From IMG/VR virus record IMGVR_UViG_2698536428_000001, positions 1-21,453 of that record: a stretch of DNA of 21,453 nucleotides; one strand, given 5' to 3'. The notes below the pieces were generated by a model. That model saw only the letters and a list, made by a program, of their open reading frames with translations. It had not been told where the DNA came from and did no database searches. This DNA is from a virus (Duplodnaviria > Heunggongvirae > Uroviricota > Caudoviricetes). The translations under genes and the position numbers were made by a program. Of this stretch, positions 1 through 21,184 are shown piece by piece (within the stretch, counting starts at the first letter, position 1; the number at the start of each line of letters is the position of its first letter).

Positions 1-1
1 A

Positions 2-619
2 ATCACGGGCGGCGACCCCGTGGAAATCAACCCGAAATATGAAAAGCGTTTCACTACGGTAATCAGGGCGGTGGTGCTGGCGACCAATAACAACCCGATG
101 ATATTCACCGAACGGGCCGGAGGCGTGTCACGTCGTCGGGTTATTTTCCGCTTCGACAATATCGTAAGCGAGGCAGAAAAAGACAGGGAGCTACCGGAAA
201 AGATCGCGGCTGAAATCCCAGTCATTATCCGCCGCTTGCTGGCGAACTTTACCGACCCTGAGAAGGCACGGGCTTTACTACTGGAACAGCGTGACGGTGA
301 TGAAGCTCTGGCAATAAAGCAACAGACGGATCCGGTTATTGAGTTTTGCCAGTTCCTGAATTTTCTGGAGGAAGCGCGCGGCCTGATGATGGGTGGCGGT
401 GGCGATTCAGTGAAGTACACGACCAGGAACAGCCTTTACCGCGTCTATCTGGCGTTTATGGCATACGCCGGAAGGAACAAGCCGCTAAACGTGGCTGAGT
501 TCAGCAAAGCTATGAAGCCAGCGGCGAAAGTTTACGGGCATGAATATATTACGCGGAAAGTCAATGGAGTTACGCAGACTAACGCAATAACAACAGACGA
601 TTGCGACGCGTTTTTATAA
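2..619 (+). CDS. Primase/helicase C-terminal region (P4 alpha / PICI Pri-Rep type), 5'-partial at window edge
   Basis: Frame is open from base 2 with no start inside the window (ORF track shows the 20..619 portion). Translation (…VIRAVVLATNNNPMIFTERAGGVSRRRVIFRFDNIV…) resembles the C-terminal domain of P4-family phage/plasmid primases. An iteron array lies immediately downstream, as expected for a rep gene. Confidence 0.55.
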   Translation: MTGGDPVEINPKYEKRFTTVIRAVVLATNNNPMIFTERAGGVSRRRVIFRFDNIVSEAEKDRELPEKIAAEIPVIIRRLLANFTDPEKARALLLEQRDGDEALAIKQQTDPVIEFCQFLNFLEEARGLMMGGGGDSVKYTTRNSLYRVYLAFMAYAGRNKPLNVAEFSKAMKPAAKVYGHEYITRKVNGVTQTNAITTDDCDAFL

Positions 620-629
620 TTTTTTGCAA

Positions 630-860
630 AAGCCCTCTACCTCCTCTACCTGAAAGGAATAAATGCATATTATTCAATATGATAAGTGGGTAGAGGGCCA
701 GGTAGAAGGCTAATAAAAACCCTCTACCTCTTCTACATGATTTTATCAATTCCAGGTAGACAGGTAGAGGTCTGGTAGAAGGGGATTAAAAGCCCTCTAC
801 CATGCTGAAAGGTGCGCCATTGCTGGATTTTTGCAGTGCTTGGTAGAAGGGGTAGAGGGA
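630..860. repeat. Iteron cluster, putative replication origin
   Basis: About 12 copies of an 8-9 bp motif GGTAGAGG / CCTCTACC (variants GGTAGAAGG, GGTAGAC) in both orientations, mostly in pairs 9-12 bp apart (e.g. 634-650, 689-709, 721-736, 754-782, 794-801, 842-859), flanking an AT-rich segment (661-686). Sits directly 3' of the primase gene. Confidence 0.55.
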
Positions 861-906
861 GGGAGGCACAACTCAAAACTTTTTAAACGAGGGGGTAAAA
901 ATAAAA

Positions 907-1164
907 ATGCGCACATCAGGAAAACTTAATAATCAGAAGAAGCAGCATAACCGCGCCATTGACCTTACAGAGCACTGGCTGAGAGTGGCGATAAAAATCA
1001 TCGACCGCAACACGGGGGAAGGATACGCGAAAGCACATCCCGAACTGATAAGCGCATTCATGACCACGGAGGCGGCAAACTTTGCCACGCTGACAGAACG
1101 GGAGATTGCCGAAGCGGAACAGGTAACAACCATCAACGTTAAAACCGGAGAGCAGACAGCATGA
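907..1164 (+). CDS. Hypothetical protein (85 aa)
   Basis: ORF with GAGGGGG Shine-Dalgarno 11 nt upstream of the ATG; stop overlaps the ssb start (ATGA), suggesting translational coupling. No recognisable family. Confidence 0.45.
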   Translation: MRTSGKLNNQKKQHNRAIDLTEHWLRVAIKIIDRNTGEGYAKAHPELISAFMTTEAANFATLTEREIAEAEQVTTINVKTGEQTA

Positions 1165-1571
1165 CAGCACAGATAGCAGCTTACGGGCGGCTGGTGGACG
1201 ACCCGCAGGTAAAACAGACCAGCAAGGGTACACCGATGACGCTGGCGCGTATGGCGGTATCTTTGCCATGCAGTCAGGCACAGGACGGACAGGCAGCGTT
1301 ATGGCTATCAGTCCTGGCATTTGGTAAGCAGGCCGACGCGCTGGCGAGACATGAAAAAGGCGACCTTATCAGCGTGGCGGGTAACATGCAGATCAGCCAG
1401 TGGACCGGACAGAACGGGGAAACGCGGCAGGGTTATCAGGTTATTGCAGACAGCGTAATCAGTGCCCGTGCGGCACGTCCTGGCGGGAACAGACGCAAGA
1501 CCACAGGCACACAGGGTAATCAGCCACCAGCGGGAGGCGATGACCATTACGGTGATGATATTCCGTTCTGA
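1161..1571 (+). CDS. ssb: Single-stranded DNA-binding protein (SSB)
   Basis: 136 aa. N-terminal OB-fold pattern typical of SSB (GRLVDDPQ…TPMTLARMAV…WLSVLAFGKQADALARHEKGDLISVAGNMQISQWT…) and the hallmark acidic C-terminal tail ending DDIPF. GGAGAG RBS upstream. Confidence 0.8.
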   Translation: MTAQIAAYGRLVDDPQVKQTSKGTPMTLARMAVSLPCSQAQDGQAALWLSVLAFGKQADALARHEKGDLISVAGNMQISQWTGQNGETRQGYQVIADSVISARAARPGGNRRKTTGTQGNQPPAGGDDHYGDDIPF

Positions 1572-1581
1572 GGGGGTGAGG

Positions 1582-1854
1582 ATGGTACATGACCGCATAG
1601 CGGAGGAACTCGAGGCAAAAGGCTTTTACCGGAGGGCGGCGGCACGATGGGGTGAAGTCATGCAACTGGTGGAGACAGACAAGGAACGGCATCAGGTTAC
1701 GATGCGACGGCTGGAATGTTCCAGGAAGGCACAGAAGCCACCGGAGCCGCCGGATAACTTCGGAGACCTGAGAAAGGCAGTAGATCGCACTTATGCTGAA
1801 ATGGGTATAGATGGTGTAAGCGATGAAATATGGCGTAATTACCCAGACAGCTAA
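1582..1854 (+). CDS. PerC-family transcriptional regulator-like protein (90 aa)
   Basis: ATG at 1582 preceded by a strong RBS (GAGGGGGTGAGG). N-terminus MVHDRIAEELEAKGFYRRAAARWGEVMQ resembles PerC/Pch-family activators as I recall them. The longer ORF from 1462 overlaps ssb and lacks an RBS. Confidence 0.45.
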   Translation: MVHDRIAEELEAKGFYRRAAARWGEVMQLVETDKERHQVTMRRLECSRKAQKPPEPPDNFGDLRKAVDRTYAEMGIDGVSDEIWRNYPDS

Positions 1855-1861
1855 TCAATAG

Positions 1862-1884
1862 CCGGAGTAATCCGGCTTTTTTGT
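1862..1884 (+). terminator. Rho-independent terminator
   Basis: Stem GCCGGA / TCCGGC with GTAA loop followed by TTTTTT, just after the perC-like stop. Confidence 0.7.
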
Positions 1885-1889
1885 ACCCA

Positions 1890-1933
1890 AAAAAAGCCCG
1901 ATAAGTACAGGAGGCATCTTATCGGGCTTTTGC
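1890..1933. terminator. Bidirectional terminator-like hairpin
   Basis: 10-bp stem GCCCGATAAG / CTTATCGGGC flanked by an A7 run on the 5' side and TTTTG on the 3' side. Confidence 0.5.
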
Positions 1934-2010
1934 ATATGAGGTTTTTTTTGGTGCACTGACACACATGATCTGGATCATCATTTCATAATTTGCAACACAA
2001 CTCAACATCA

Positions 2011-2038
2011 TTGCATAAAATGCAATCATGATTATAAT
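2011..2038 (+). promoter_or_regulatory. Sigma70-type promoter for the capsid-paralog operon
   Basis: TTGCAT (2011-2016), 16-bp spacer, perfect TATAAT (2033-2038), about 55 nt upstream of the first operon ORF. The -35 lies inside the palindrome ATTGCAT-AAA-ATGCAAT. Confidence 0.5.
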
Positions 2039-2043
2039 CAGAT

Positions 2044-2059
2044 CTGGATGAACATCCAG
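2044..2059. promoter_or_regulatory. Putative operator (perfect inverted repeat CTGGATG-AA-CATCCAG)
   Basis: Perfect 7-bp inverted repeat immediately downstream of the -10 element, overlapping the predicted transcription start. Has CTG-N10-CAG spacing but is off the LexA consensus. Confidence 0.4.
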
Positions 2060-2094
2060 TTATGATTTTTTAAGTCAAAGAGGAATTTCTTACT

Positions 2095-2301
2095 ATGGCT
2101 GAAGAGAAAAAAGGCGGTGTTTCGGTGTACATAAGCCCCGACATCGTGAAGGCGCTCAAGGAACGCCACCAGCAGAACGTAAAAGCAGGCATTGCGGCAG
2201 GACTTGATCCGCTGGCGATGGTTGAGCCGTCAACAGGCTGGCAGGTACGCGCCTATTTACGCGCGGCGCTGGGTATGAATCAGGTTCACGGGGGTGAATA
2301 A
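2095..2301 (+). CDS. Hypothetical protein (68 aa), first gene of the capsid-paralog operon
   Basis: ATG preceded by AAGAGGAA RBS. Stop TAA overlaps the ATG of the next gene (TAATG), suggesting translational coupling. Confidence 0.5.
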   Translation: MAEEKKGGVSVYISPDIVKALKERHQQNVKAGIAAGLDPLAMVEPSTGWQVRAYLRAALGMNQVHGGE

Positions 2302-3356
2302 TGACAGTAAAAGCAATATCACTTAACACTAACCAGCTTTTTGCGTACCTGAATCGCGAGGATATTGCGGAATTTAAATTCAGTCCGCTGTTTACCGCGC
2401 TGTTTTTCCCGAACGTGGCGACATTCAACACACAGGACATCATGTTAGATAACCTGGATATTGAAGAAGTCACTATGTCGGCGTTTTGTTCGCCTATGGT
2501 GGGTAGCCAGGTTCAGCGCGATAAAGGGTACGAAACAAGCATTATTCGCCCTGGCTACATGAAGCCAAAACACGAAATCGATCCATTAAAAACAATAATG
2601 CGCATGGCTGGAGAAGATCCGGCACAGCTTAACGACCCTACCTACCGCCGTATGCGCCTGATTACTGGCAACATGCGCCGCCAGATAAACGCCATTAAAG
2701 CGCGCGTGGAATGGCTGGCGGTAAATGCGGTAACGACCGGAAAAAACATCATTGAGGGCGAAGGCATAGAGCGCTATGAAATCGACTGGAAGATACCGGA
2801 AAAAAACATCATAGAGCAGGCCGACGGTAAAAAATGGTCAGAGCAGGACAAAGACATACACGACCCAATCTATGACATTGAGCTATACGCAGATCAGGCA
2901 GGTTGCCCCGCAAACGTCATGATTATGGGCGTTGATGTATGGCGCATGTTACGCAGCTTTAAAAAATTCCGTGAACTGTACGATCTCTCCCGTGGTTCAG
3001 AATCCGCCGCAGAGCTGGCATGTAAAAACCTGGGAGAAGTGGTGAGCTTTAAAGGCTATCTTGGTGATCTGGCCCTTATCGTCTATTCCGGCAAATACAC
3101 TGACAGCGACGGCACAGAAAAATATTTCCTTGAGCCTGATTTGCTGGTCCTGGGCAACACCAACAATAAAGGGCTGGTGGCCTATGGTGCGATTATGGAA
3201 CAGGAAGCGGTAAGAACGGGCGCAACGCAAAACATGTTTTACCCGAAAAACTGGATTGAAGACGGCGATCCGGCGATTGAGTACGTGCAGACACACAGCG
3301 CACCGCAGCCTGTTCCGGCAGATATTCGCAAATTTGTTACCGTCAAAATTGGTTAA
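2301..3356 (+). CDS. Major capsid protein, divergent paralog of lambda gpE
   Basis: 351 aa, colinear with lambda gpE (341 aa) along its whole length, with conserved blocks such as PGY(M/V)KPKHE, DP.YRR.R.I and YPKNW; roughly 35-45% identity by eye. Clearly distinct from the lambda E copy at 8427-9452. Confidence 0.8.
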   Translation: MTVKAISLNTNQLFAYLNREDIAEFKFSPLFTALFFPNVATFNTQDIMLDNLDIEEVTMSAFCSPMVGSQVQRDKGYETSIIRPGYMKPKHEIDPLKTIMRMAGEDPAQLNDPTYRRMRLITGNMRRQINAIKARVEWLAVNAVTTGKNIIEGEGIERYEIDWKIPEKNIIEQADGKKWSEQDKDIHDPIYDIELYADQAGCPANVMIMGVDVWRMLRSFKKFRELYDLSRGSESAAELACKNLGEVVSFKGYLGDLALIVYSGKYTDSDGTEKYFLEPDLLVLGNTNNKGLVAYGAIMEQEAVRTGATQNMFYPKNWIEDGDPAIEYVQTHSAPQPVPADIRKFVTVKIG

Positions 3357-3358
3357 CG

Positions 3359-3703
3359 GTGGATTCTATGAACACTCCATACATTGAGTTATTTGCAGGC
3401 AGTCAGCAGGTATCAACGACGCTGGTACATTTTGCCGCTGATGCTGGCGTTATTCAGGAATTTACCCCGCTGATGCTGGCGGACAATGGCGAGTTTAAGC
3501 CGTGGGATGGTCAGGAATCTGGCAAGGCTGTTTATCTGACCTCGTACCCCGTTGACACGTCGACGCAGAAATCAGCACAGTGCTATAAGACGGGGATATT
3601 CAATATCGCCGCCGTTAACTGGCCTGAGAGCGTCGACACCGATGCGAAAAAATGCGCCGCCTTTGCGGGTTCTGGCGTATCCGTTCAGCCGCTGGCCAGA
3701 TAA
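3359..3703 (+). CDS. Capsid decoration protein, divergent paralog of lambda gpD
   Basis: About 111-114 aa. Aligns with lambda gpD (110 aa): TPLMLADNGEFKPWDG versus [17 protein letters not shown], and C-terminal KKCAAFAGSGVSVQ versus [14 protein letters not shown]. Start is either GTG 3359 or ATG 3368; the RBS is weak for both. Confidence 0.75.
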   Translation: MDSMNTPYIELFAGSQQVSTTLVHFAADAGVIQEFTPLMLADNGEFKPWDGQESGKAVYLTSYPVDTSTQKSAQCYKTGIFNIAAVNWPESVDTDAKKCAAFAGSGVSVQPLAR

Positions 3704-3715
3704 GCAGGGGGAACG

Positions 3716-4129
3716 ATGGCAACGAATGAAAGCATCATGGCGCTACCGCTGGCGAGTAAATTTAAAGCCGAAGCGCGGGCAATGGCTGACAGAGGGTTAT
3801 CAACCTACGAGGCCGTATATCAACTCAACAAACTGGAAGAACAGGACAAGCCGCGCGCTGATGCGATTATGGCGCTTCATGAACATAACGACTATCAGCC
3901 GCTGTTACGTGCAATGGCAAACGTGCCATGTATTAGCGTCGATAATGCTCGTGAAATCCTGAACATGACCATAGAGCAGGAGCGCCCAAAGGTTGCACCA
4001 GAGCTTACCGCAGCCTTTGAAAACTTTATGGACATGCACAGCCCGCAAGCCGTATCAGCTGGCATGGCATACGATGGCAGAAACCAGGGCGATGACGGCG
4101 ACATCGATCACATACTGAAAACCATCTGA
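3716..4129 (+). CDS. Hypothetical protein (137 aa), last gene of the capsid-paralog operon
   Basis: ATG preceded by a GGGGGA RBS and followed by a strong terminator. No recognisable similarity to lambda FI/FII or other families by eye. Confidence 0.5.
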   Translation: MATNESIMALPLASKFKAEARAMADRGLSTYEAVYQLNKLEEQDKPRADAIMALHEHNDYQPLLRAMANVPCISVDNAREILNMTIEQERPKVAPELTAAFENFMDMHSPQAVSAGMAYDGRNQGDDGDIDHILKTI

Positions 4130-4135
4130 GACAAG

Positions 4136-4159
4136 GCCGGAGAAATCCGGCTTTTTTTT
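4136..4159 (+). terminator. Rho-independent terminator
   Basis: Stem GCCGGA / TCCGGC with GAAA loop followed by T8. Confidence 0.75.
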
Positions 4160-4160
4160 A

Positions 4161-4228
4161 CGGGTCCTTTCCGGCATATGGACCCGTTACGGGGCGGCGA
4201 CCTCGCGGATTTTCGCTATTTATGAGAT
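4161..4228 (+). other. Lambda-type cos segment copy 1 (cosQ-side flank, cosN, proximal cosB), rightward orientation
   Basis: Contains the lambda 12-nt cohesive-end sequence GGGCGGCGACCT (4192-4203) within GTTACGGGGCGGCGACCTCGCGGATTTTCGCTATTTATGA, nearly identical to the lambda cosN region as I recall it (…GGGCGGCGACCTCGCGGGTTTTCGCTATTTATGAAAATTTTCCGG…). Confidence 0.7.
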
Positions 4229-4241
4229 TTTTTGAGGGGGT

Positions 4242-4387
4242 GGTTGTTGTTTAATTGTTTGGTATATCTAATTGATAAGTAAGGTAAAAATAAAATAAAT
4301 ACAACAACCTTACGATGTATTTTGATGTCATTAATGTGAAAAAATTCAATGATATCAAATGGTTTTGTAAAAACACATGGTTGTTGT
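4242..4387. repeat. GGTTGTTGT repeats (two direct, one inverted) in the AT-rich core; candidate cosB R-like sites for cos copy 1
   Basis: GGTTGTTGT at 4242-4250 and 4379-4387, inverted ACAACAACC at 4300-4308. An IHF-like TATCAAATGGTTT lies near 4349-4361. Spacing from cosN is on the same scale as the lambda R3-I1-R2-R1 arrangement. Confidence 0.35.
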
Positions 4388-4563
4388 ATCGCGTATTTGA
4401 TGGCGTAACAGAAAGTGATTTTTAACTTTACCGCTCTGTAACTACGGATTATTCCATGCTGGCACGGAGAACGGCTACGGCATGACGCCACCCAGCCTAT
4501 ACAGAACAGTAAAGCCGATAAATTGTTAATCACGCGCAGCAATGCGTGTGATTTTTGCACACT

Positions 4564-4677
4564 TCCGGTTAACGGGTACGATGTCCGGTTTTAGTGTCTG
4601 TTTTTTGCGCATGTCCGGTTCATAGAAAGCATGTTTTTATATTTTTCATATGGTTAACTTGCAGAGAAACCGGACAT
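4564..4677. repeat. ATGTCCGGTT repeats (two direct, one inverted, one partial); candidate cosB R-like sites for cos copy 2
   Basis: ATGTCCGGTT at 4581-4590 and 4611-4620, inverted AACCGGACAT at 4668-4677, partial TCCGGTT at 4564-4570. They sit on the cosB side of the minus-oriented cosN, with AT-rich DNA between the inverted and direct copies. Confidence 0.4.
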
Positions 4678-4691
4678 GGATCCCGGAAAAT

Positions 4692-4759
4692 TTTCATAAA
4701 TAGTGAAAAACCGCGAGGTCGCCGCCCCGTAACGGGCCATAATTCCAGGAAGGACCCGA
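4692..4759 (-). other. Lambda-type cos segment copy 2, leftward orientation
   Basis: The reverse complement reads GGCCCGTTACGGGGCGGCGACCTCGCGGTTTTTCACTATTTATGAAAATTTTCCGG, matching the lambda left-end sequence through about 50 nt. Plus-strand cosN complement AGGTCGCCGCCC is at 4716-4727. Forms a ~68-bp imperfect inverted repeat with 4161-4228. Confidence 0.7.
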
Positions 4760-4791
4760 CGACACCAGACTATCAGAGCGATGGGGGCACA

Positions 4792-5073
4792 ATGACAGAA
4801 GCCGAAATACTGGGATTAATCCGCCGTGCTGGTGGAATCAGCCAGCAGGTTGACGAACAGGCCACGCAGCCGGACAGCGTGACAGCCGAAAATTATGCGC
4901 GTGTTGTTGCTGAGGTGATGCGCCGTGATGGTATCCAGCTTAATGGCGTGGATATGCGCAACATACGAACCAGAGTTCTTGAGTTGCTGGCCTACCGTCG
5001 CCGCGTGGAGATGTATCGGGAGAAGGAGAAAATAACGTACCACTGGAAGAAGCCGGAGCGGTTGCGGCGGTAA
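4792..5073 (+). CDS. Hypothetical protein (93 aa) adjacent to cos
   Basis: ATG at 4792 preceded by a GGGGG RBS; basic, Arg-rich C-terminus. The longer ORF from 4594 starts in AT-rich non-coding-looking DNA and is less likely. Confidence 0.45.
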   Translation: MTEAEILGLIRRAGGISQQVDEQATQPDSVTAENYARVVAEVMRRDGIQLNGVDMRNIRTRVLELLAYRRRVEMYREKEKITYHWKKPERLRR

Positions 5074-5425
5074 CTGGTTGATATTCCCGACGGCCCAAAA
5101 ATGGGTTGGCTACACCACTCACAACTACGACATTTTCGCAGTTTAATTAATGGTCAGCTTAATCGCTAACCCGCTGATATTTTCGGAAACCTCAATTTGA
5201 GGAAGTCGGCGCGGTAACTTGCTGATATTCCCGATAACGCAAAATTGCGCTGGCTGGCAGAGTGCAAATTTGCACGATGGCCTAACCCATTGATTCTTTC
5301 GAAAACCCCCATTGGGGGAGAACGGGGGAATAAACCTGACTCATTGATTCTTCCACAATCCTCAATTTGAGGAAGTCGGCGCGGTAACTCGCTGAACTTT
5401 AAGCAAAGCGCAAAATTGCGCTTGC
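5062..5425. repeat. Three imperfect direct repeats (core CGGCGCGGTAACTNGCTGA…) with embedded palindromes
   Basis: Copies at about 5064-5100, 5188-5250 and 5358-5425. The last two share about 60 bp, including CCTCAATTTGAGGAAGTCGGCGCGGTAACT and GCAAAATTGCGC. Confidence 0.6.
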
Positions 5426-5956
5426 TGAATAATCATTATGATTACGCAGATGATTAAGGAATGACCGAAGGCGGAAATTCGCCTGTGGTTAATGGGGGAG
5501 TTGCAGATCTGCAACTCGACCATGAAACTACGGAAACTACCCGTAGTTTGGGTAGTAAGAGTAACACCCAGATTTTGGGGCTTACTCGTGATACCCAAAT
5601 TTGGGGTATCGGTGGCAACCATAACGACTTTCGTTACGGTTGATGCTTTTACCCCATTGGGGGAAAGGTATTACGATAATCATAACACCTACCGAACAGG
5701 TAAAGCCCACCAGCCTGATTAACGTTTAACCGGAAAAAAATTCCGGTAGGTGGGGATCCCTATATCGACATTAACGCCCACTAAAACTGTGCATATATGC
5801 ATAGAAAAAGCATCCACCAGCTTTATGACGGATGCCGCTCATCTTATAAATAATCGTGTATTGCAGTGTGTATTGCGACTCCTTTAAACGATAGGTCTGA
5901 GCATTCGTAATGTACTGTTTTTAAATTTTATTTTTTCCTGTCTTTTCATAAAAGCC

Positions 5957-6730
5957 ATGTATGCCGCCACCATTGAAAGTGAGCTGGATACGCAGTCAGC
6001 GATGGATTTTATTCTGGGCGCGAACAGTCAGGAGCAGCGGGAAAGGCTGACGGGCTGGATTGGTGAAATTGCCGCGTATTACGCCGCAGCACCGGTCCGT
6101 CTGGGAGGCGCAAAAGTGCCGCACCTGATGCCGGGGGACTCACTGAACCTGCAGACGGCTCAGGACACGGATAACGGCTACTCCGTGTTTGAGCAGTCAC
6201 TGTTGCGGTATATCGCTGCCGGGCTGGGTGTCTCGTATGAGCAGCTTTCCCGGAATTACGCCCAGATGAGCTACTCCACGGCACGGGCCAGTGCGAACGA
6301 GTCGTGGGCGTACTTTATGGGGCGGCGAAAATTCGTCGCATCCCGTCAGGCGAGCCAGATGTTTCTGTGCTGGCTGGAAGAGGCCATCGCTCGCCGCGTG
6401 GTGACGTTACCTTCAAAAGCGCGCTTCAGTTTTCAGGAAGCCCGAAGTGCCTGGGGGAACTGCGACTGGATAGGCTCCGGTCGTATGGCCATCGATGGTC
6501 TGAAAGAAGTACAGGAAGCGGTGATGCTGATAGAAGCCGGACTGAGTACCTACGAGAAAGAGTGCGCAAAACGCGGTGACGACTATCAGGAAGTTTTTGC
6601 CCAGCAGGTCCGTGAAACGATGGAGCGCCGTGCAGCCGGTCTTAAACCGCCCGCCTGGGCGGCTGCGGCATTTGAATCCGGGCTGCGACAATCAACAGAG
6701 GAGGAGAAGAGTGACAGCAGAGCTGCGTAA
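5957..6730 (+). pseudogene. B: Portal protein gene B, 3' fragment (about C-terminal 257 of 533 codons)
   Basis: Translation matches the C-terminal half of lambda gpB as I recall it, and the 3' end overlaps the C start by 20 nt as in lambda. Sequence immediately upstream (5760-5955) is AT-rich and unlike lambda B coding DNA, so the lambda homology appears to begin near 5955. Confidence 0.7.
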
Positions 6731-8029
6731 TCTCCCGCATATTGCCAGTATGGCCTTTAATGAGCCGCTGATGCTTGAACCCGCCTATGCGCGGGTTTTC
6801 TTTTGTGCGCTTGCAGGCCAGCTTGGGATCAGCCGCCTGACGGATGCGGTATCCGGCGACAGCCTGACTGCCGGAGAGGCACCCGCGGCGCTGGCGTTAT
6901 CCGTTGATGATGACGGACCACGACAGGCCCGCAGTTATCAGGTCATGAACGGCATCGCCGTGCTGCCGGTGTCCGGCACGCTGGTCAGTCGGACGCGGGC
7001 GCTGCAGCCGTATTCGGGGATGACCGGTTACAACGGCATTATCGCCCGTCTGCAACAGGCTGCCAGCGACCCGATGGTGGACGGCATTCTGCTCGATATG
7101 GATACGCCAGGCGGGATGGTGGCAGGGGCATTTGACTGCGCTGACATCATCGCCCGTGTGCGTGACATAAAGCCGGTATGGGCGCTGGCAAGCAACTGAA
7201 CTGCAGTGCAGGTCAGTTGCTTGCCAGCGCCGCCTCCCGACGTCTGGTCACGCAGACCGCCCGGACAGGCTCCATCGGCGTCATGATGGCTCACAGTAAT
7301 TACGGTGCTGCGCTGGAGAAACAGGGCGTGGAAATCACGCTGATTTACAGCGGCAGCCATAAGGTGGATGGCAACCCCTACAGCCATCTACCGGATGATG
7401 TCCGGGAAACACTGCAGTCCCGGATGGATGCAACCCGCCGGATGTTTGCACAGAAGGTGTCGGCATATACCGGCCTGTCCGTGCAGGCTGTGCTGGATAC
7501 CGAGGCTGCAGTGTACAGCGGTCAGGAGGCCATTGATGCCGGACTGGCTGATGAACTTGTTAACAGTACCGATGCGATCACCGTCATGCGTGATGCACTG
7601 GATGCACGTAAATCCCGTCTCTCAGGAGGGCGAATGACCAAAGAGACTCAATCAACAACTGTTTCAGCCACTGCTTCGCAGGCTGACGTTACTGGCGTGG
7701 TGCAAGCGACGGAGGGCGAGAACGCCAGCGCTGCGCAGCCGGACGTGAACGCGCAGATCACCGCAGCGGTTGCGGCAGAAAACAGTCGCATTATGGGGAT
7801 CCTCAACTGTGAGGAGGCTCACGGACGCGAAGAACAGGCACGCGTGCTGGCCGAAACCCCCGGTATGACCGTGGAAACGGCCCGCCGCATTCTGGCAGTT
7901 GCACCACAGAGTGCACAGGCGCGCAGTGACACTGCGCTGGATCGTCTGATGCAGGGGGCACCGGCACCGCTGGCTGCAGGTAACCCGGCATCTGATGCCG
8001 TTAACGATTTGCTGAACACACCAGTGTAA
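6711..8029 (+). pseudogene. C: Head protease/scaffold gene C, disrupted by a frameshift near 7180-7199
   Basis: GTG start at 6711 gives MTAELRNLPHIASMAFNEPLML… (lambda gpC). The reading frame ends at TGA 7197-7199 (…KPVWALASN*) and gpC sequence continues in another frame from 7178 (…QLNCSAGQLLASAASRRL…). The span is 1319 nt, not a multiple of 3; lambda C is one ORF of 1320 nt as I recall. Confidence 0.7.
7424..8029 (+). CDS. nu3: Scaffolding protein Nu3 (in-frame internal start within the 3' part of C)
   Basis: ATG at 7424 (MDATRRMFAQKVSAYTGLS…), 201 aa, ending at the C stop as in lambda. Lies downstream of the C frameshift, so it is intact. Confidence 0.75.
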   Translation: MDATRRMFAQKVSAYTGLSVQAVLDTEAAVYSGQEAIDAGLADELVNSTDAITVMRDALDARKSRLSGGRMTKETQSTTVSATASQADVTGVVQATEGENASAAQPDVNAQITAAVAAENSRIMGILNCEEAHGREEQARVLAETPGMTVETARRILAVAPQSAQARSDTALDRLMQGAPAPLAAGNPASDAVNDLLNTPV

Positions 8030-8038
8030 GGGATGTTT

Positions 8039-8371
8039 ATGACGAGCAAAGAAACCTTTACCCATTACCAGCCGCTGGGCAACAGTGACCCGGCTCATAC
8101 CGCAACCGCGCCCGGCGGATTGAGTGCGAAAGCGCCTGCAATGACCCCGCTGATGCTGGACACCTCCAGCCGTAAGCTGGTTGCGTGGGATGGCACCACC
8201 GACGGTGCTGCCGTTGGCATTCTTGCGGTTGCTGCTGACCAGACCAGCACCACGCTGACGTTCTACAAGTCCGGCACGTTCCGTTATGAGGATGTGCTCT
8301 GGCCGGAGGCTGCCAGCGACGAGACGAAAAAACGGACCGCGTTTGCCGGAACGGCAATCAGCATCGTTTAA
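8039..8371 (+). CDS. D: Head decoration protein gpD
   Basis: 110 aa, [27 protein letters not shown]…[11 protein letters not shown]; matches lambda gpD as recalled. Confidence 0.9.
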
Positions 8372-8392
8372 CTTTACCCTTCATCACTAAAG

Positions 8393-8413
8393 GCCGCCTG
8401 TGCGGCTTTTTTT
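8393..8413 (+). terminator. Intergenic D-E stem-loop with T-run (attenuator/terminator-like)
   Basis: GCCGC-CTGT-GCGGC followed by T7, between D and E. Confidence 0.4.
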
Positions 8414-8426
8414 ACGGGATTTTTTT

Positions 8427-9452
8427 ATGTCGATGTACACAACAGCCCAGCTGCTGGCGGCAAATGAGCAGAAATTTAAGTTTGATCCGCTGTTTCTGCG
8501 TCTCTTTTTCCGTGAGAGCTATCCCTTCACCACGGAGAAAGTCTATCTCTCACAAATTCCGGGACTGGTAAACATGGCGCTGTACGTTTCGCCGATTGTT
8601 TCCGGTGAGGTTATCCGTTCCCGTGGCGGCTCCACCTCTGAATTTACGCCGGGATATGTCAAGCCGAAGCATGAAGTGAATCCGCAGATGACCCTGCGTC
8701 GCCTGCCGGATGAAGATCCGCAGAATCTGGCGGACCCGGCTTACCGCCGCCGTCGCATCATCATGCAGAACATGCGTGACGAAGAGCTGGCCATTGCTCA
8801 GGTCGAAGAGATGCAGGCAGTTTCTGCCGTGCTTAAGGGCAAATACACCATGACCGGTGAAGCCTTCGATCCGGTTGAGGTGGATATGGGCCGCAGTGAG
8901 GAGAATAACATCACGCAGTCCGGCGGCACGGAGTGGAGCAAGCGTGACAAGTCCACGTATGACCCGACCGACGATATCGAAGCCTACGCGCTGAACGCCA
9001 GCGGTGTGGTGAATATCATCGTGTTCGATCCGAAAGGCTGGGCGCTGTTCCGTTCCTTCAAAGCCGTCAAGGAGAAGCTGGATACCCGTCGTGGCTCTAA
9101 TTCCGAGCTGGAGACAGCGGTGAAAGACCTAGGTAAAGCGGTGTCCTATAAGGGGATGTATGGCGATGTGGCCATCGTCGTGTATTCCGGACAGTACGTG
9201 GAAAACGGCGTCAAAAAGAACTTCCTGCCGGACAACACGATGGTGCTGGGGAACACTCAGGCACGCGGTCTGCGCACCTATGGCTGCATTCAGGATGCGG
9301 ACGCACAGCGCGAAGGCATTAACGCCTCTGCCCGTTACCCGAAAAACTGGGTGACCACCGGCGATCCGGCGCGTGAGTTCACCATGATTCAGTCAGCACC
9401 GCTGATGCTGCTGGCTGACCCTGATGAGTTCGTGTCCGTACAACTGGCGTAA
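8427..9452 (+). CDS. E: Major capsid protein gpE
   Basis: 341 aa starting MSMYTTAQLLAANEQKFKFDPLF…; matches lambda gpE as recalled along its entire length. Confidence 0.92.
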   Translation: MSMYTTAQLLAANEQKFKFDPLFLRLFFRESYPFTTEKVYLSQIPGLVNMALYVSPIVSGEVIRSRGGSTSEFTPGYVKPKHEVNPQMTLRRLPDEDPQNLADPAYRRRRIIMQNMRDEELAIAQVEEMQAVSAVLKGKYTMTGEAFDPVEVDMGRSEENNITQSGGTEWSKRDKSTYDPTDDIEAYALNASGVVNIIVFDPKGWALFRSFKAVKEKLDTRRGSNSELETAVKDLGKAVSYKGMYGDVAIVVYSGQYVENGVKKNFLPDNTMVLGNTQARGLRTYGCIQDADAQREGINASARYPKNWVTTGDPAREFTMIQSAPLMLLADPDEFVSVQLA

Positions 9453-9454
9453 TC

Positions 9455-9481
9455 ATGGCCCTTCGGGGCCATTGTTTCTCT
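9455..9481 (+). terminator. Intergenic E-FI stem-loop (ATGGCCC-TTCG-GGGCCAT) with U-rich tail
   Basis: Perfect 7-bp stem with tetraloop directly after the E stop; partial terminator or RNA-stability element. Confidence 0.35.
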
Positions 9482-9493
9482 GTGGAGGAGTCC

Positions 9494-9892
9494 ATGACGA
9501 AAGATGAACTGATTGCCCGTCTCCGCTCGCTTGGTGAACAACTGAACCGTGATGTCAGCCTGACGGGGACGAAAGAAGAACTGGCGCTCCGTGTGGCAGA
9601 GCTGGAAGAGGAGCTTGATGACACGGATGAAACTGCCGGTCAGGACACCCCTCTCAGCCGGGAAAATGTGCTGACCGGACATGAAAATGAGGTGGGATCA
9701 GCGCAGCCGGATACCGTGATTCTGGATACGTCTGAACTGGTCACGGTCGTGGCACTGGTGAAGCTGCATACTGATGCACTTCACGCCACGCGGGATGAAC
9801 CTGTGGCATTTGTGCTGCCGGGAACGGCGTTTCGTGTCTCTGCCGGTGTGGCAGCCGAAATGACAGAGCGCGGCCTGGCCAGAATGCAATAA
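9494..9892 (+). CDS. FI: DNA-packaging protein gpFI
   Basis: 132 aa, MTKDELIARLRSLGEQLNRDVSL…; GGAGGAG RBS; matches lambda FI. Confidence 0.88.
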   Translation: MTKDELIARLRSLGEQLNRDVSLTGTKEELALRVAELEEELDDTDETAGQDTPLSRENVLTGHENEVGSAQPDTVILDTSELVTVVALVKLHTDALHATRDEPVAFVLPGTAFRVSAGVAAEMTERGLARMQ

Positions 9893-9903
9893 CGGGAGGC
9901 GCT

Positions 9904-10278
9904 GTGGCTGATTTCGATAACCTGTTCGATGCTGCCATTGCCCGCGCCGATGAAACGATACGCGGGTACATGGGAACGTCAGCCACCATTACATCCGGTG
10001 AGCAGTCAGGTGCGGTGATACGTGGTGTTTTTGATGACCCTGAAAATATCAGCTATGCCGGACAGGGCGTGCGCGTTGAAGGCTCCAGCCCGTCCCTGTT
10101 TGTCCGGACTGATGAGGTGCGGCAGCTGCGGCGTGGAGACACGCTGACCATCGGTGAGGAAAATTTCTGGGTAGATCGGGTTTCGCCGGATGATGGCGGA
10201 AGTTGTCATCTCTGGCTTGGACGGGGCGTACCGCCTGCCGTTAACCGTCGCCGCGGAAAGGGGGATGTATGGCCATAA
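9904..10278 (+). CDS. FII: Head-tail joining protein gpFII, with 7-codon C-terminal extension relative to lambda
   Basis: Matches lambda FII (117 aa, ending …PAVNRRR), but the codon at 10255-10257 is GGA where lambda has its stop as I recall. The ORF continues GKGDVWP to TAA 10276-10278 and overlaps the Z start. Confidence 0.8.
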   Translation: MADFDNLFDAAIARADETIRGYMGTSATITSGEQSGAVIRGVFDDPENISYAGQGVRVEGSSPSLFVRTDEVRQLRRGDTLTIGEENFWVDRVSPDDGGSCHLWLGRGVPPAVNRRRGKGDVWP

Positions 10279-10847
10279 AAGGTCTTGAGCAGGCCGTTGA
10301 AAACCTCAGCCGTATCAGCAAAACGGCGGTGCCTGGTGCCGCCGCAATGACCATTAACCGCGTTGCTTCATCCGCGATATCGCAGTCTGCGTCACAGGTT
10401 GCCCGTGAGACAAAGGTACGCCGAAAACTGGTAAAGGAAAGGGCCAGGCTGAAAAGGGCCACGGTCAAAAATCCGCAGGCCAGAATCAAAGTTAACCGGG
10501 GGGATTTGCCCGTAATCAAGCTGGGTAATGCGCGGGTTGTCCTGTCCCGCCGCAGGCGTCGTAAAAAGGGGCAGCGTTCATCCCTGAAAGGTGGCGGCAG
10601 CGTGCTTGTGGTGGGTAACCGTCGTATTCCCGGCGCGTTTATTCAGCAACTGAAAAATGGCCGGTGGCATGTTATGCAGCGTGTGGCCGGGAAAAACCGT
10701 TACCCCATTGATGTGGTGAAAATCCCGATGGCGGTGCCGCTTACCACGGCGTTTAAACAGAATATTGAACGGATACGGCGTGAACGTCTTCCGAAAGAGC
10801 TGGGCTATGCGCTGCAGCATCAACTGAGAATGGTAATAAAGCGATGA
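10269..10847 (+). CDS. Z: Tail completion protein gpZ
   Basis: 192 aa, MAIKGLEQAVENLSRISKTAVPG…; matches lambda Z. Confidence 0.88.
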   Translation: MAIKGLEQAVENLSRISKTAVPGAAAMTINRVASSAISQSASQVARETKVRRKLVKERARLKRATVKNPQARIKVNRGDLPVIKLGNARVVLSRRRRRKKGQRSSLKGGGSVLVVGNRRIPGAFIQQLKNGRWHVMQRVAGKNRYPIDVVKIPMAVPLTTAFKQNIERIRRERLPKELGYALQHQLRMVIKR

Positions 10848-11239
10848 AACATACTGAACTCCGTGCAGCCGTACTGGATGCACTGGAGAAGCATGACACC
10901 GGGGCGACGCTTTTTGATGGTCGCCCCGCTGTTTTTGATGAGGAAGATTTTCCGGCAATTGCCGTTTATCTCACCGGCGCTGAATACACGGGCGAAGAGC
11001 TGGACAGCGATACCTGGCAGGCGGAGCTGCATATTGAAGTTTTCCTGCCTGCTCAGGTGCCGGATTCAGAGCTGGATTCGTGGATGGAGTCCCGGATTTA
11101 TCCGGTGATGAGCGATATCCCGGCACTGTCAGATTTGATCACCAGTATGGTGGCCAGTGGCTATGACTACCGGCGCGACGATGATGCGGGCCTGTGGAGT
11201 TCAGCCGATCTGACTTATGTCATTACCTATGAAATGTGA
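10844..11239 (+). CDS. U: Tail terminator protein gpU
   Basis: 131 aa, [30 protein letters not shown]…; ATGA overlap with Z. Confidence 0.88.
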
Positions 11240-11246
11240 GGACGCT

Positions 11247-11987
11247 ATGCCTGTACCAAATCCTACAATGCCGGTGAAAGGTGCCGGGACCACCCTGTGG
11301 GTTTATAAGGGGAGCGGTGACCCTTATGCGAACCCGCTTTCAGACGTTGACTGGTCGCGTCTGGCAAAAGTTAAAGACCTGACGCCCGGCGAACTGACCG
11401 CTGAGTCCTATGACGACAGCTATCTCGATGATGAAGATGCAGACTGGACTGCGACCGGGCAGGGGCAGAAATCTGCCGGAGATACCAGCTTCACGCTGGC
11501 GTGGATGCCCGGAGAGCAGGGGCAGCAGGCGCTGCTGGCGTGGTTTAATGAAGGTGATACCCGTGCCTATAAAATCCGCTTCCCGAACGGCACGGTCGAT
11601 GTGTTCCGTGGCTGGGTCAGCAGTATCGGTAAGGCGGTGACGGCGAAGGAAGTGATCACCCGCACGGTGAAGGTCACCAATGTGGGACGTCCGTCGATGG
11701 CAGAAGATCGCAGCACGGTGACGGCGACAACCGGCATGACGGTGACACCCGCCAGTGCTTCCGTAGTGAAAGGGCAGAGCACCACGCTGACCGTGGCATT
11801 CCAGCCGGAGGGCGCAACCGACAAGAGCTTCCGTGCGGTGTCTGCGGATAAAACAAAAGCCACCGTGTCGGTCAGTGGTATGACCATCACCGTGAAAGGT
11901 GTTGCTGCAGGCAAGGTCAACATTCCGGTCGTATCTGGTAATGGTGAGTTTGCTGCGGTTGCAGAAATCAACGTCACCGCCAGTTAA
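11247..11987 (+). CDS. V: Major tail protein gpV
   Basis: 246 aa from ATG 11247 ([22 protein letters not shown]…), including the C-terminal Ig-like region. Confidence 0.9.
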
Positions 11988-12002
11988 TCCGGAGAGTCAG
12001 CG

Positions 12003-12425
12003 ATGTTCCTGAAAACCGAATCATTTGAACATAACGGTGTGACCGTCACGCTTTCTGAACTGTCAGCCCTGCAGCGTATTGAGCATCTCGCCCTGATGAA
12101 ACGGCAGGCAGAACAGGCGGAGTCAGACAGCAACCGGAAGTTTACTGTGGAAGACGCCATCAGAACCGGCGCGTTTCTGGTGGCGATGTCCCTGTGGCAT
12201 AACCATCCGAAGAAGACAAAGCTGCCTTCCATGAATGAAGCCGTTAAACAGATTGAGCAGGAAGTGCTTACCACCTGGCCCACAGAGGCAATTTCTCATG
12301 CTGAAAACGTGGTGTACCGGCTGTCCGGTATGTATGAGTTTGTGGTGAATGATGCTCCTGAACAGGCAGAGGACGCCGGGCCTGCAGAGCCTGTTTCTGC
12401 GGGAAAGTGTTCGACGGTGAGCTGA
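12003..12425 (+). CDS. G: Tail assembly chaperone gpG
   Basis: 140 aa, MFLKTESFEHNGVTVTLSELSALQRIEHLALMKRQ…; ends …SAGKCSTVS. Confidence 0.88.
   Translation: MFLKTESFEHNGVTVTLSELSALQRIEHLALMKRQAEQAESDSNRKFTVEDAIRTGAFLVAMSLWHNHPKKTKLPSMNEAVKQIEQEVLTTWPTEAISHAENVVYRLSGMYEFVVNDAPEQAEDAGPAEPVSAGKCSTVS
12401..12407 (+). other. Programmed -1 ribosomal frameshift slippery heptamer G GGA AAG (G to GT fusion)
   Basis: GGGAAAG sits 6 codons before the G stop. The -1 frame continues open into the T reading frame (…G K V F D G E L S F…). Confidence 0.8.
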
Positions 12426-12841
12426 GTTTTGCCCTGAAACTGGCGCGTGAGATGGGGCGACCCGACTGGCGCGCCATGCTTGCCGGGATGTCATCCACGG
12501 AGTATGCCGACTGGCACCGCTTTTACAGTACCCATTATTTTCATGATGTTCTGCTGGATATGCACTTTTCCGGGCTGACGTACACTGTGCTCAGCCTGTT
12601 TTTCAGCGATCCAGAGATGCATCCGCTGGATTTCAGTCTGCTGAACCGGCGCGAGGCTGACGAAGAGCCTGAAGATGATGTGCTGATGCAGAAAGCGGCA
12701 GGGCTTGCCGGAGGCGTTCGTTTTGGCCCGGACGGGAATGAAGTTATCCCCGCTTCCCCGGATGTGGCGGACATGACGGAGGATGACGTAATGCTGATGA
12801 CAGTATCAGAAGGGATCGCAGGAGGAGTCCGGTATGGCTGA
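12408..12841 (+). CDS. T: T-frame portion of tail assembly chaperone gpGT (expressed as a G-T fusion via -1 frameshift)
   Basis: Open frame from the slippery site to 12841 encoding …FDGELSFALKLAREMGRPDWRAMLAGMSSTEYADWHRF…; no independent start expected. Confidence 0.8.
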
Positions 12842-15383: not shown

Positions 15384-15709
15384 AAACCTTCCGCTGGAAA
15401 GTGAAACCCGGTATGGATGTGGCTTCGGCCCCTTCCGTAAGAAAGGTGCGCTTTGGTGATGGCTATTCCCAGCGAGCGCCTGCCGGGCTGAATGCCGACC
15501 TGAAAACGTACAGCGTGACGCTTTCTGTTCCCCGTTGGGAGGCCACGGCGCTTGAGTCGTTTCTGGCTGAGCACGGGGGCTGGAAATCCTTTCTGTGGAC
15601 GCCGCCTTATGGCTACCGGCAGATAAAGGTGACCTGCGCAAAATGGTCGTCGCGGGTCAGTATGTTGCGTGTTGAGTTCAGCGCAGAGTTTGAACAGGTG
15701 GTGAACTGA
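15380..15709 (+). CDS. M: Tail tip assembly protein gpM
   Basis: 109 aa, MKTFRWKVKPGMDVASAPSVRKVRFGDGYSQRAP…; ATGA overlap with H. Confidence 0.88.
   Translation: MKTFRWKVKPGMDVASAPSVRKVRFGDGYSQRAPAGLNADLKTYSVTLSVPRWEATALESFLAEHGGWKSFLWTPPYGYRQIKVTCAKWSSRVSMLRVEFSAEFEQVVN

Positions 15710-17782: not shown

Positions 17783-21184
<3,402 letters not shown>

Follow-up and report, generated by a model that had tools for sequence, protein, structure and literature searches.

Organization of the locus

The window, by which we mean the whole stretch of 21,453 nucleotides analyzed here (IMG/VR record IMGVR_UViG_2698536428_000001), starts inside a satellite island and passes through portal gene B into the head genes of a lambdoid prophage. 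The features on the island side and at the junction are the following.

1 to 5950, plus strand: right-hand part of an EcCICFT073-family PICI, recognized by Pfam and PHROG matches, with non-coding repeats at its end
20 to 619, plus strand: C terminus of the PICI primase (Pfam/PHROG)
1161 to 1571, plus strand: PICI SSB (Pfam/PHROG)
1462 to 1854, plus strand: PICI PerC (Pfam/PHROG)
2301 to 3356, plus strand: PICI E-like capsid protein (Pfam/PHROG)
3359 to 3703, plus strand: PICI D-like decoration protein (Pfam/PHROG)
3716 to 4129, plus strand: PICI protein resembling the Nu3 C terminus (Pfam/PHROG)
4792 to 5073, plus strand: small PICI ORF, followed by the non-coding repeats
5855 to 5877, plus strand: doubled motif cgTGTATTGCagtgTGTATTGCg, about 80 to 90 nt upstream of the att core
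5951 to 5963: att core at the right junction (attR) of the satellite, AAAGCCATGTATG as compared with AAGGCGATGTATG in intact portal genes
5957 to 6730, plus strand: 3' part of portal gene B, 257 codons, covering Pfam Phage_portal_2 positions 238 to 354 and corresponding to portal nt 829 to 1602 of the intact gene

The gene content and order of the island, a replication zone followed by a late zone with a capsid homologue, are those of a PICI, and the island is 92% identical to that of CFT073 (1383377-1388666), in which the genes follow one another in the same order. Among complete E. coli genomes, the best match of this block (95.6%) lies in JNEC-KY203, at a chromosomal site; the PICI capsid protein is common to many PICIs at chromosomal sites. 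Unlike the A5-type islands, the island of the window lacks a Nu1-like small-terminase gene and has instead two convergent lambda-type cos sites. The minus-strand ORF between these two sites (4216-4560) was considered as a Nu1-like gene and set aside for want of a Pfam match. Scans of the whole window for tRNA genes and Rfam families returned nothing.

A helper-embedded PICI in portal gene B

The initial annotation had described a truncated portal gene and an absent terminase. A fragment of B is indeed what the window contains, but the missing part was most probably not deleted; the window starts inside the island, and the remainder can be seen in genomes that have the same junction. In A5 and CFSAN029787, Nu1, A, W, and the 5' 834 nt of B lie just left of the island's integrase, and the tyrosine integrase WP_000963723.1 adjoins the 5' portal fragment. 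A deletion of the terminase and the 5' portal region was therefore rejected in favor of a PICI insertion. The right side is provided by the window, in which the 3' part of B stands directly 3' of the island and on the same strand; the attL and the integrase gene of this island fall outside the window, so that the left side is that of A5 and CFSAN029787, which share its attR.

The att sequences point to the same arrangement. The core in the window differs from uninterrupted prophages at positions 5953 and 5956, and the 13-bp core (portal nt 823 to 835) is duplicated at both island ends in strain A5; precise excision would therefore rebuild B. The doubled motif cgTGTATTGCagtgTGTATTGCg is likewise found at both junctions in A5. 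A doubled TGTATTGC / tgTGTATTGCantgTGTATTGCa motif is specific to the att sites of helper-embedded (HE) PICIs, where it lies 81 +/- 2 bp from the att centre (PMC10111431), and the doubled tgTGTATTGCantgTGTATTGCa motif is present in the window at 5855-5877.

What appeared as a "truncated" portal is thus the attR of a helper-embedded PICI that occupies portal gene B. The arrangement, which we had considered as possibly new, belongs to a class already published (PMC10111431). It resembles the HE-PICIs described at B:Phage_portal_2:241 (Tommasini, Mageeney & Williams 2023, PMC10111431) in that an EcCICFT073-like island is co-oriented in a lambdoid late gene, the att core has a doubled TGTATTGC motif nearby, the portal fragment begins at Pfam position 238, and the integrase seen in complete genomes is next to the 5' half of the portal gene. 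It differs from them in that the helper of the window is additionally defective in gene C, which adds to the HE-PICIs a case in which the helper has a second, independent head-gene defect.

The lesion in gene C

Downstream of the portal fragment, the gene for the head protease is interrupted, and the relevant features are as follows.

6711 to 7199, plus strand: 5' fragment of gene C (head protease), 162 codons and then a premature TGA at 7197-7199 (ORF list and translation); matches PHROG 53, head maturation protease, over profile positions 1 to 155
7178 to 8029, plus strand: downstream ORF in the shifted frame, 283 codons, with the remaining S49 domain and the scaffold domain (Pfam Peptidase_S49, E=1.2e-38)
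7181 to 7231: palindrome, now nearly perfect, with arms at 7181-7205 and 7207-7231 (25 nt, 96% complementary, 1 nt apart)
7190 to 7196: 7-nt tract AAGCAAC, which replaces the ancestral 8-nt CAACGACA in alignments with intact alleles and shifts the frame
7205 to 7207, plus strand: AGT codon for the catalytic Ser166 of gpC, at the palindrome centre and out of frame with the gene start in the window
7216 to 7222: GTTGCTT in the opposing arm, the putative templating tract, the same in intact and mutated alleles
7424 to 8029, plus strand: Nu3 scaffold gene, in the original C frame and nested 3' of the lesion; ATG at 7424 and a complete 201-codon ORF, of which positions 1 to 201 of 201 match PHROG 8940, "capsid assembly protein"

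Much of what had been noted for gene C was borne out. The C frame, which opens with a GTG at 6711, does end at the TGA at 7197-7199 and resume in another frame, as seen from the two ORFs; the gene spans 1319 nt (6711-8029), whereas all intact relatives, including lambda-type phages (record coordinates 4418-5737), align over 1320 nt; the break is close to the active-site serine, at codons 160 to 163 and immediately 5' of the serine of the NCSAGQ motif (codon AGT, 7205-7207); and Nu3 is unaffected from 7424 onward. The nature of the lesion proved to be different. Alignment with intact alleles places the indel, a one-base deletion, after 7196 and beside three substitutions, at 7190, 7192, and 7194. 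All four changes are confined to 7 to 8 nt, and no homopolymer is present, so that what had been taken for a single-base difference, and possibly a homopolymer error in the consensus, is the replacement of 8 nt by 7.

This replacement can be seen against a near-isogenic relative with an intact gene. JNEC-KY179 has an intact C in the same prophage, down to the IS3 insertion in ybcN, and from 5957 to about 21320 (about 15.4 kb) it differs from the window only by the gene C cluster and one SNP at 20959. The change, and its arrival as one event on a near-identical background, are thus observed directly. Eight complete genomes match gene C at 99.7%; this amounts to 4 differences over 1,319 nt, as many as the cluster contains. 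The identical mutated allele is found in the complete genome JNEC-KY208, where C is annotated as "frameshifted" (PGAP) and the lambda block is 99.93% identical to that of the window. Its near-isogeny with JNEC-KY179 makes the polarity of the change unambiguous.

The allele is rare. It accounts for 1 of about 2,119 copies in 5,426 complete E. coli genomes, and census scans of GTDB species representatives, IMG/VR, and JGI metagenomes did not find it, while the intact allele has 46 matches in IMG/VR. Nevertheless, the exact truncated product is encoded by 22 contigs of NCBI and of SRR, ERR, and DRR runs; two of these contigs (L013 and L017) match the window at 100% identity through the PICI junction. 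The mutated allele is seen in two different flanking contexts, with a shared haplotype marked by the SNP at 20959.

These occurrences bear on the alternative that the initial annotation itself had raised, in which a hairpin-provoked error of sequencing or assembly obscures an intact 439-codon ORF. Strong hairpins can upset some sequencing chemistries, and the presence of the allele in just one of the complete genomes might be read in the same way. However, such an error would have had to produce three substitutions and a deletion where there is no homopolymer, and to do so identically in a complete genome from another laboratory and in contigs from the runs of several laboratories, in both flanking contexts and on the same haplotype, whereas thousands of assemblies have read the intact quasi-palindrome without such an error. 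We therefore regard an artefact as highly improbable. With JNEC-KY208 and the 22 contigs from several independent runs, the allele is real and inherited, its inheritance being visible in these genomes.

A probable templated origin of the frameshift

The replacement tract is not arbitrary, as AAGCAAC (7190-7196) is the exact reverse complement of GTTGCTT (7216-7222). In the intact alleles of 89-3156, JNEC-KY179, and phage 1H12, an imperfect inverted repeat already spans the site, around the Ser166 codon: the outer 9-nt arms GGCGCTGGC / GCCAGCGCC are complementary, the inner 9-nt arms TGAACTGCA / TGCAGGTCA are complementary with one mismatch, and the middle is not complementary, with CAACGACA opposite GTTGCTT. 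The mutated allele turns the arms from 16 nt with 81% complementarity into 25 nt with 96%, and leaves A7200/G7212 as the sole mismatch between them. The predicted DNA fold is correspondingly more stable (-30.2 kcal/mol, z = -10.3, versus -17.7 kcal/mol for the intact allele), as is the RNA fold (-49.9 versus -35.3 kcal/mol). The new hairpin was also considered as an intrinsic terminator and rejected, as it has no T-run and was not flagged in the terminator check.

Since AAGCAAC copies the opposing arm and an interrupted palindrome has become a hairpin with 25-nt arms, gene C was very probably inactivated by one template-switch event associated with the quasi-palindrome. During DNA synthesis, the nascent strand, with the right arm and the centre already copied, would fold back on itself, and the middle and the outer arm would then be copied from its own right arm, before the 9-bp match of the outer arms allowed a return to the proper template. 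AAGCAAC would in this way take the place of CAACGACA, and a single step would account for the three substitutions and for the net loss of a base, leaving a near-perfect 25-bp hairpin and a frameshift that ends the C frame at codon 163, three codons short of the nucleophile serine. We infer the switching mechanism and its direction from the product alone. The retention of the inner A/G mismatch (7200/7212) fits synthesis from right to left in gene coordinates, and this would be the lagging strand if the event took place at the DLP12 site in the orientation of JNEC-KY208. This assignment stands on one retained mismatch and on the assumed DLP12 site; in the E. coli reporters that have been published, the bias is mostly toward the leading strand (PMC7202029). 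Hairpin-templated repair outside replication would give an identical product.

Two other routes to the same sequence were weighed. In the first, the four changes accumulated independently, as point mutations and a separate one-base deletion in a decaying pseudogene, which might be expected where an interrupted portal relaxes selection on C. Yet four changes within 7 nt stand against one other difference in the 15.4 kb shared with JNEC-KY179, alleles with a subset of the four changes are absent among the alleles aligned and the best-ranked matches, and only 1 of the 7,560 possible paths of three substitutions and one deletion yields AAGCAAC, the exact complement of the other arm. In addition, the same allele sits in prophages whose portal and terminase are uninterrupted. 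Stepwise decay consequently has a negligible probability.

In the second, the 7-nt tract came in by recombination, its source being a diverged homologue of C or some other locus in which GGCAAGCAACTGAAC occurs naturally. The head genes of lambdoid phages are highly mosaic, and one contig (L010, discussed below) has the allele on a different background, so that short patches may move. Against this, a donor was looked for without success. Every other copy in the 5,426 E. coli genomes lacks the mutated sequence, as do IMG/VR, the JGI metagenomes, and the GTDB representatives, and the 1319-nt form does not occur in the phage records among the matches listed. A functional donor could not have had the net one-base loss, both flanks of the tract are identical to the intact allele, and the opposing arm, at a distance of 20 nt, is the sole template that matches. 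We give very little credence to an imported patch as the origin of the lesion.

Templating from the opposing arm also agrees with what is known of such events. Quasi-palindrome template-switch mutation is established in E. coli, with quasi-palindromes acting as hotspots (PMC7202029), and the gene C allele shares with the Ripley model, the thyA hotspot, and the lacZ QP5/QP6 reporters of Lovett an imperfect inverted repeat that is made more perfect, several base changes that arise together with an indel as the exact complement of the other arm, and matched sequences flanking the tract that permit the switch and the return. In contrast to the reporters, it is a natural allele of a prophage structural gene recognized by comparative genomics, its arms are long (25 nt), and the catalytic serine codon forms the hairpin centre. 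Comparative genomics of yeast has similarly traced clusters of multinucleotide mutations to template switching that homogenizes the arms of inverted repeats, by comparing close relatives (PMC8604942). There, protein innovation was the outcome considered, whereas in gene C the outcome is a loss of function, and the near-isogenic pair JNEC-KY179/JNEC-KY208 differs by almost nothing else over 15 kb.

The allele is thus a well-defined natural case of a known type of mutation in an equally known kind of composite element, and current understanding is not overturned. It illustrates how a prophage frameshift that looks like a one-base change can in fact be a templated event of several bases, for which the PGAP annotation gives only "frameshifted" and which variant calling may easily miscount as several independent mutations or discard as errors. 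JNEC-KY179 and JNEC-KY208 offer a natural near-isogenic pair, before and after a quasi-palindrome mutation in E. coli.

Predicted loss of the head protease

Gene C of the window is 97 to 99% identical at the nucleotide level to that of lambda-type phages and, as in the lambda gpC/Nu3 type, contains a nested, in-frame Nu3 with its own start, at the same position. The serine of the NCSAGQ motif is also that of lambda gpC: in the intact protein, S166 aligns with the nucleophile in the AASGG motif of SppA from B. subtilis and E. coli (3RST, 4KWB, and 3BEZ), and residues 81 to 298 form the region homologous to solved S49 structures. A single polypeptide with the S49 fold and the serine nucleophile is absent in the window. 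Since the ORF stops at codon 163, with the serine codon in another frame, gene C is, as judged from its sequence, a pseudogene of the S49 prohead protease family. Unlike in lambda, the protease ORF is split, and only Nu3 remains as a complete ORF.

A functional protease might still be made by recoding, either through programmed ribosomal frameshifting or through reinitiation at ATG 7178, with which the downstream frame begins 19 nt ahead of the stop; the very stable RNA hairpin across the site could be taken as a signal for such an event. However, no slippery motif or ribosome-binding site was seen on inspection, and the hairpin encloses the stop codon instead of lying downstream of a slip site. 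The product from 7178 would miss residues 81 to 160 of the S49-homologous region, and the allele is a rare derived state that is not conserved among homologues. Recoding that restores the protease is accordingly most unlikely. The downstream ORF, which contains all of Nu3, is itself probably not translated from 7178, as this ATG has no obvious upstream ribosome-binding site.

Lambda C was scored as essential, its knockdown reducing the efficiency of plating to <2e-7 (PMC10695390), a CRISPRi score that may include polar effects on downstream genes. By analogy, a prophage with no functional gpC protease would be unable to mature its own heads. This agrees with the earlier suggestion that the lambda head pathway would be defective by itself, in that the prophage would have no head protease of its own, C being frameshifted beside the catalytic serine. 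Nu3, D, E, and the tail genes are intact ORFs. It is conceivable that gpC is supplied in trans by another lambdoid prophage of the same cell.

Inheritance and possible recurrence of the allele

One occurrence departs from a simple line of descent. The contig L010 (SRR17729780) is 96.8% identical to the window overall, a background diverged by about 3%, yet its C allele is identical. "One event, then inheritance" may thus be an incomplete account, and L010 needs either recurrence or a short recombination patch. The same templated origin could have acted repeatedly at a hotspot, so that the product arose at least twice, once in the lineage of JNEC-KY208 and the window and once in that of L010. 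The closest intact relative of L010, USMARC-51408, is identical to the window over 6999-7731 except for the cluster, which means that this background offered the same quasi-palindrome; moreover, the product of a templated event is deterministic, and hotspot behavior is known for quasi-palindromes (PMC7202029). On the other hand, L010 is explained equally well by gene conversion over less than 733 bp, with a prophage of the JNEC-KY208 type as the donor, and this 733-bp interval holds no site informative for the choice between patch and recurrence. The allele is also very rare overall, and the reciprocal product, in which the right arm is converted, was not found in IMG/VR. Recurrence is therefore a possibility that we hold tentatively, on the less probable side.

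We further speculate, with still more reserve, that the quasi-palindrome around the serine codon of lambda-family C could be a recurrent, sequence-determined hotspot that inactivates the protease in independent lineages, L010 being a second origin. Such a site would provide a built-in route to domestication, possibly favored when a helper-embedded satellite obtains gpC from another resident prophage; we think it unlikely that the whole of this proposal holds.

The C-defective prophage occurs both with and without the HE-PICI in portal gene B, the window being the PICI-occupied form, and the presence or absence of the island thus varies inside one nearly clonal prophage lineage.

Gene C lesion

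Gene C, the head protease gene of the lambda-like prophage, spans 1319 nt in the window (6711-8029) versus 1320 nt aligned in every intact relative, a comparison covering 80 phage records and over 3,000 genomes of E. coli, with lambda-type genomes aligned at record coordinates 4418-5737. ORFs and alignments agree with the initial annotation that the frame stops at 7197-7199 and continues in another frame, leaving the nested scaffold gene Nu3 intact. The window's D, E, FI, FII, and tail genes all remain intact ORFs as well.

Features of the gene C region
6711 (GTG) to TGA 7197-7199, plus strand: 5' part of gene C, 162 codons, lambda-type
7178-8029, plus strand: second ORF, in a frame other than that of the C start, with a Peptidase_S49 domain and the scaffold region
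7181-7205 and 7207-7231: arms of the mutated palindrome, 25 nt each, 96% complementary, spaced by 1 nt
ATG 7424, plus strand: Nu3, complete, 201 codons, matching the PHROG "capsid assembly protein" family over its full length

The break had been read as a single-base difference and a candidate homopolymer error, but alignment with intact alleles shows that the ancestral GGC-CAACGACA-TGAACTGCA has become GGC-AAGCAAC-TGAACTGCA, through substitutions at 7190, 7192, and 7194 and one deletion after 7196, all within 7 to 8 nt and with no homopolymer present. The resulting AAGCAAC (7190-7196) is the exact reverse complement of GTTGCTT (7216-7222). An interrupted palindrome is already present in the intact allele, with complementary outer (GGCGCTGGC/GCCAGCGCC) and inner (TGAACTGCA/TGCAGGTCA) arms, the middle alone being noncomplementary. 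Of 7,560 possible placements of three substitutions and one deletion in the ancestral 8-mer, a single one gives the observed 7-mer. In DNA, the hairpin is predicted at -17.7 kcal/mol for the intact allele and at -30.2 kcal/mol for the mutated allele (z = -10.3 versus shuffles); the corresponding RNA values are -35.3 and -49.9 kcal/mol. The new hairpin lacks a T-run and is not terminator-like.

Inheritance of the mutated allele

From 5951 to its end, the window aligns gaplessly over 15,503 nt, with 11 mismatches, to the DLP12-site lambdoid prophage of the complete E. coli genome JNEC-KY208, and KY208 has the identical C allele, labeled "frameshifted" by PGAP. Its sister strain JNEC-KY179 carries this prophage too, including the IS3 insertion in ybcN, but its C is intact. 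In a three-way alignment, the sole differences between the window and KY179 from 5957 to ~21320 are the four-change cluster and a SNP at 20959, both common to the window and KY208. In eight complete genomes, the match to gene C is 99.7%, or 4 differences in 1,319 nt, as many as the cluster contains. The exact 162-residue truncated product is on record in 22 contigs, from one NCBI assembly and several SRR, ERR, and DRR runs, and two of them (L013 and L017) match the window at 100% identity through the 5951 junction. The KY208/KY179 comparison and the repeated finding of the identical product exclude, for practical purposes, both a sequencing or assembly error, the same allele being found in KY208 and in 22 contigs from several runs, and a stepwise decay of C, given that only the cluster and one SNP separate the window from KY179.

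Among 5,426 complete E. coli genomes, the mutated allele is found in 1 of ~2,119 copies of the segment; searches of GTDB species representatives, IMG/VR, and JGI metagenomes gave no match to it. IMG/VR has 46 occurrences of the intact allele and none of the reciprocal product, in which the right arm is converted.

Mechanism of the mutation

The C lesion is a textbook signature of quasi-palindrome-associated template-switch mutation; a hairpin-templated repair process at the same palindrome would give the same product. In template switching, the nascent strand self-pairs at an imperfect inverted repeat, copies a stretch of the other arm, and rejoins its proper template, which raises the complementarity of the arms and makes several changes in a single step. 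Quasi-palindromes are documented hotspots for such events in E. coli (PMC7202029). In gene coordinates, it is the 5' arm that changed, while the inner mismatch A7200/G7212 is retained; both points fit a strand growing from right to left. Such a strand would first make the right arm, the center, and the inner left arm, then copy the middle and outer arm from itself, and finally realign with its proper template through the 9-bp outer arm. The KY208 record begins at dnaA, with the prophage on the minus strand, 3.67 Mb into a total of 5.02 Mb, so the late genes are codirectional with the fork and the growing strand would be the lagging one. This assignment is an inference, and the event may have occurred at another site or while the phage was replicating.

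The lesion adds a natural case to a known class of mutation, in a well-studied gene and in a known type of helper-satellite composite, and is a tidy example with KY179 and KY208 as a near-isogenic before/after pair.

The identical allele, with its perfected palindrome, is also found in contig L010 (SRR17729780), whose prophage is 96.8% identical to the window overall (~3% diverged) across the equivalent of 5951-15777. L010 equals the window exactly only within 6999-7731, and its closest intact-C relative, USMARC-51408, equals the window across that interval except for the cluster. On sequence comparison, independent recurrence and a conversion patch of <733 bp are each compatible with the data. 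We consider it rather unlikely that the serine-centered quasi-palindrome is a recurrent hotspot for prophage inactivation.

Consequences for the protease

Residues 81 to 298 of intact gpC are homologous to the SppA structures, and Ser166 aligns with the AASGG-motif serine of the B. subtilis and E. coli enzymes; its codon (AGT, 7205-7207) is the palindrome center. Since the mutated frame stops three codons ahead of this nucleophile and the S49 fold is split midway, no functional protease would be expected. Rescue by recoding is unlikely, because inspection revealed neither a ribosome-binding site ahead of ATG 7178 nor a slippery motif. Up to 7 copies of gene C are found per E. coli genome, and gpC could therefore be provided in trans by another lambdoid prophage. 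Lambda C scored as essential upon knockdown (efficiency of plating [EOP] below 2e-7), with polar effects on downstream genes possible (PMC10695390), and gpC is reported to take part, along with B and Nu3, in initiating head assembly (PMC3224144).

The KY208 prophage (L005 8340-10056 and 35205-38560) also has the ybcN IS3, shared with KY179, and a frameshift in the side tail fiber gene that KY179 does not share; C is thus not its sole lesion, but no other affects the head and tail-shaft genes.

Satellite in the portal gene

The part of the window to the left of 5951 bears no relation to the KY208 prophage.

Features of the satellite region
1-5963: PICI part, with primase C terminus, SSB, PerC, lambda-E-like capsid, D-like decoration, and small Nu3-C-terminus-like proteins
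5951-5963: attR core, AAAGCCATGTATG

The PICI part is 92% identical to the region of E. coli CFT073 that holds the prototype PICI satellite and shares its gene order. It represents an EcCICFT073-family PICI integrated in the lambdoid portal gene B, whose right-hand portion makes up the left quarter of the window. The initial annotation had reported a truncated portal and an absent terminase. B is interrupted, not deleted: in A5 and CFSAN029787, complete genomes with the same junction, Nu1, A, and W are followed by the 5' 834 nt of B and a tyrosine integrase, and beyond the island come the 3' 783 nt of B and then C. By analogy, the window's terminase genes would be expected just past its left end, on the far side of the island. 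In A5, portal nt 823-835 (AAGGCGATGTATG) is present at each end of the island, and each junction is flanked by GTGTATTGCA repeats.

Such an arrangement has been named a helper-embedded PICI; the related integrases use 14 target sites in lambda-type late genes, including B:Phage_portal_2:241, and the att sites have a doubled tgTGTATTGCantgTGTATTGCa motif ~81 bp from the center (PMC10111431). The window shares this doubled motif, at 5855-5877, and its portal fragment begins at Pfam profile position 238; its site is apparently the published B:Phage_portal_2:241. The same attR is present in 59 complete E. coli genomes.

The mutated C occurs with an uninterrupted portal and terminase in KY208 and in 6 of the 10 contigs listed, and with the PICI junction, in a near-identical prophage, in the window, L013, L017, and L015. 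Among carriers compared over 5929-15851, PICI presence or absence is incongruent with the SNPs at 7987 and 10172 that subdivide the lineage: L015 (DRR588887) combines the island with the KY208 SNPs, while the window has the island without them. The C mutation is thus older than at least some of the events of island gain, loss, or recombination. The pattern implies that, in a single prophage lineage that is nearly clonal, the island was gained or lost repeatedly or recombination took place.

Following 15 kb that are nearly identical, the final ~120 nt of the window contain seven differences (21322-21443) versus both KY208 and KY179, a cluster that looks like a recombination boundary just past gene J.

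Other features of the PICI end

The 12-nt lambda cohesive-end sequence GGGCGGCGACCT has two exact copies in the PICI late zone, at 4192-4203 (plus strand) and 4716-4727 (minus strand), versus ~0.003 exact matches expected by chance; they are convergent, ~520 nt apart, and have lambda-like cos flanks. A5-type islands differ in carrying a Nu1-like small-terminase gene where the window PICI has the two cos sites. The minus-strand ORF between these sites (4216-4560) has no Pfam match.

The noncoding right end of the PICI (5074-5750) is dense in short palindromes with A/T-rich centers. A ~60-nt unit occurs in it three times (starts at 5166, 5282, and 5336), together with other repeats of 19 to 38 nt; tRNA and Rfam scans gave no match in this region.

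The PICI ORF at 3716-4129 encodes a 137-residue protein of PHROG 1999 that resembles the C-terminal scaffold part of gpC/Nu3, and PHROG 1999 also matches residues 199 to 282 of the window's own C/Nu3 ORF. PGAP labels the A5 counterpart a helix-turn-helix regulator. This protein may be a satellite scaffold or capsid-assembly factor.
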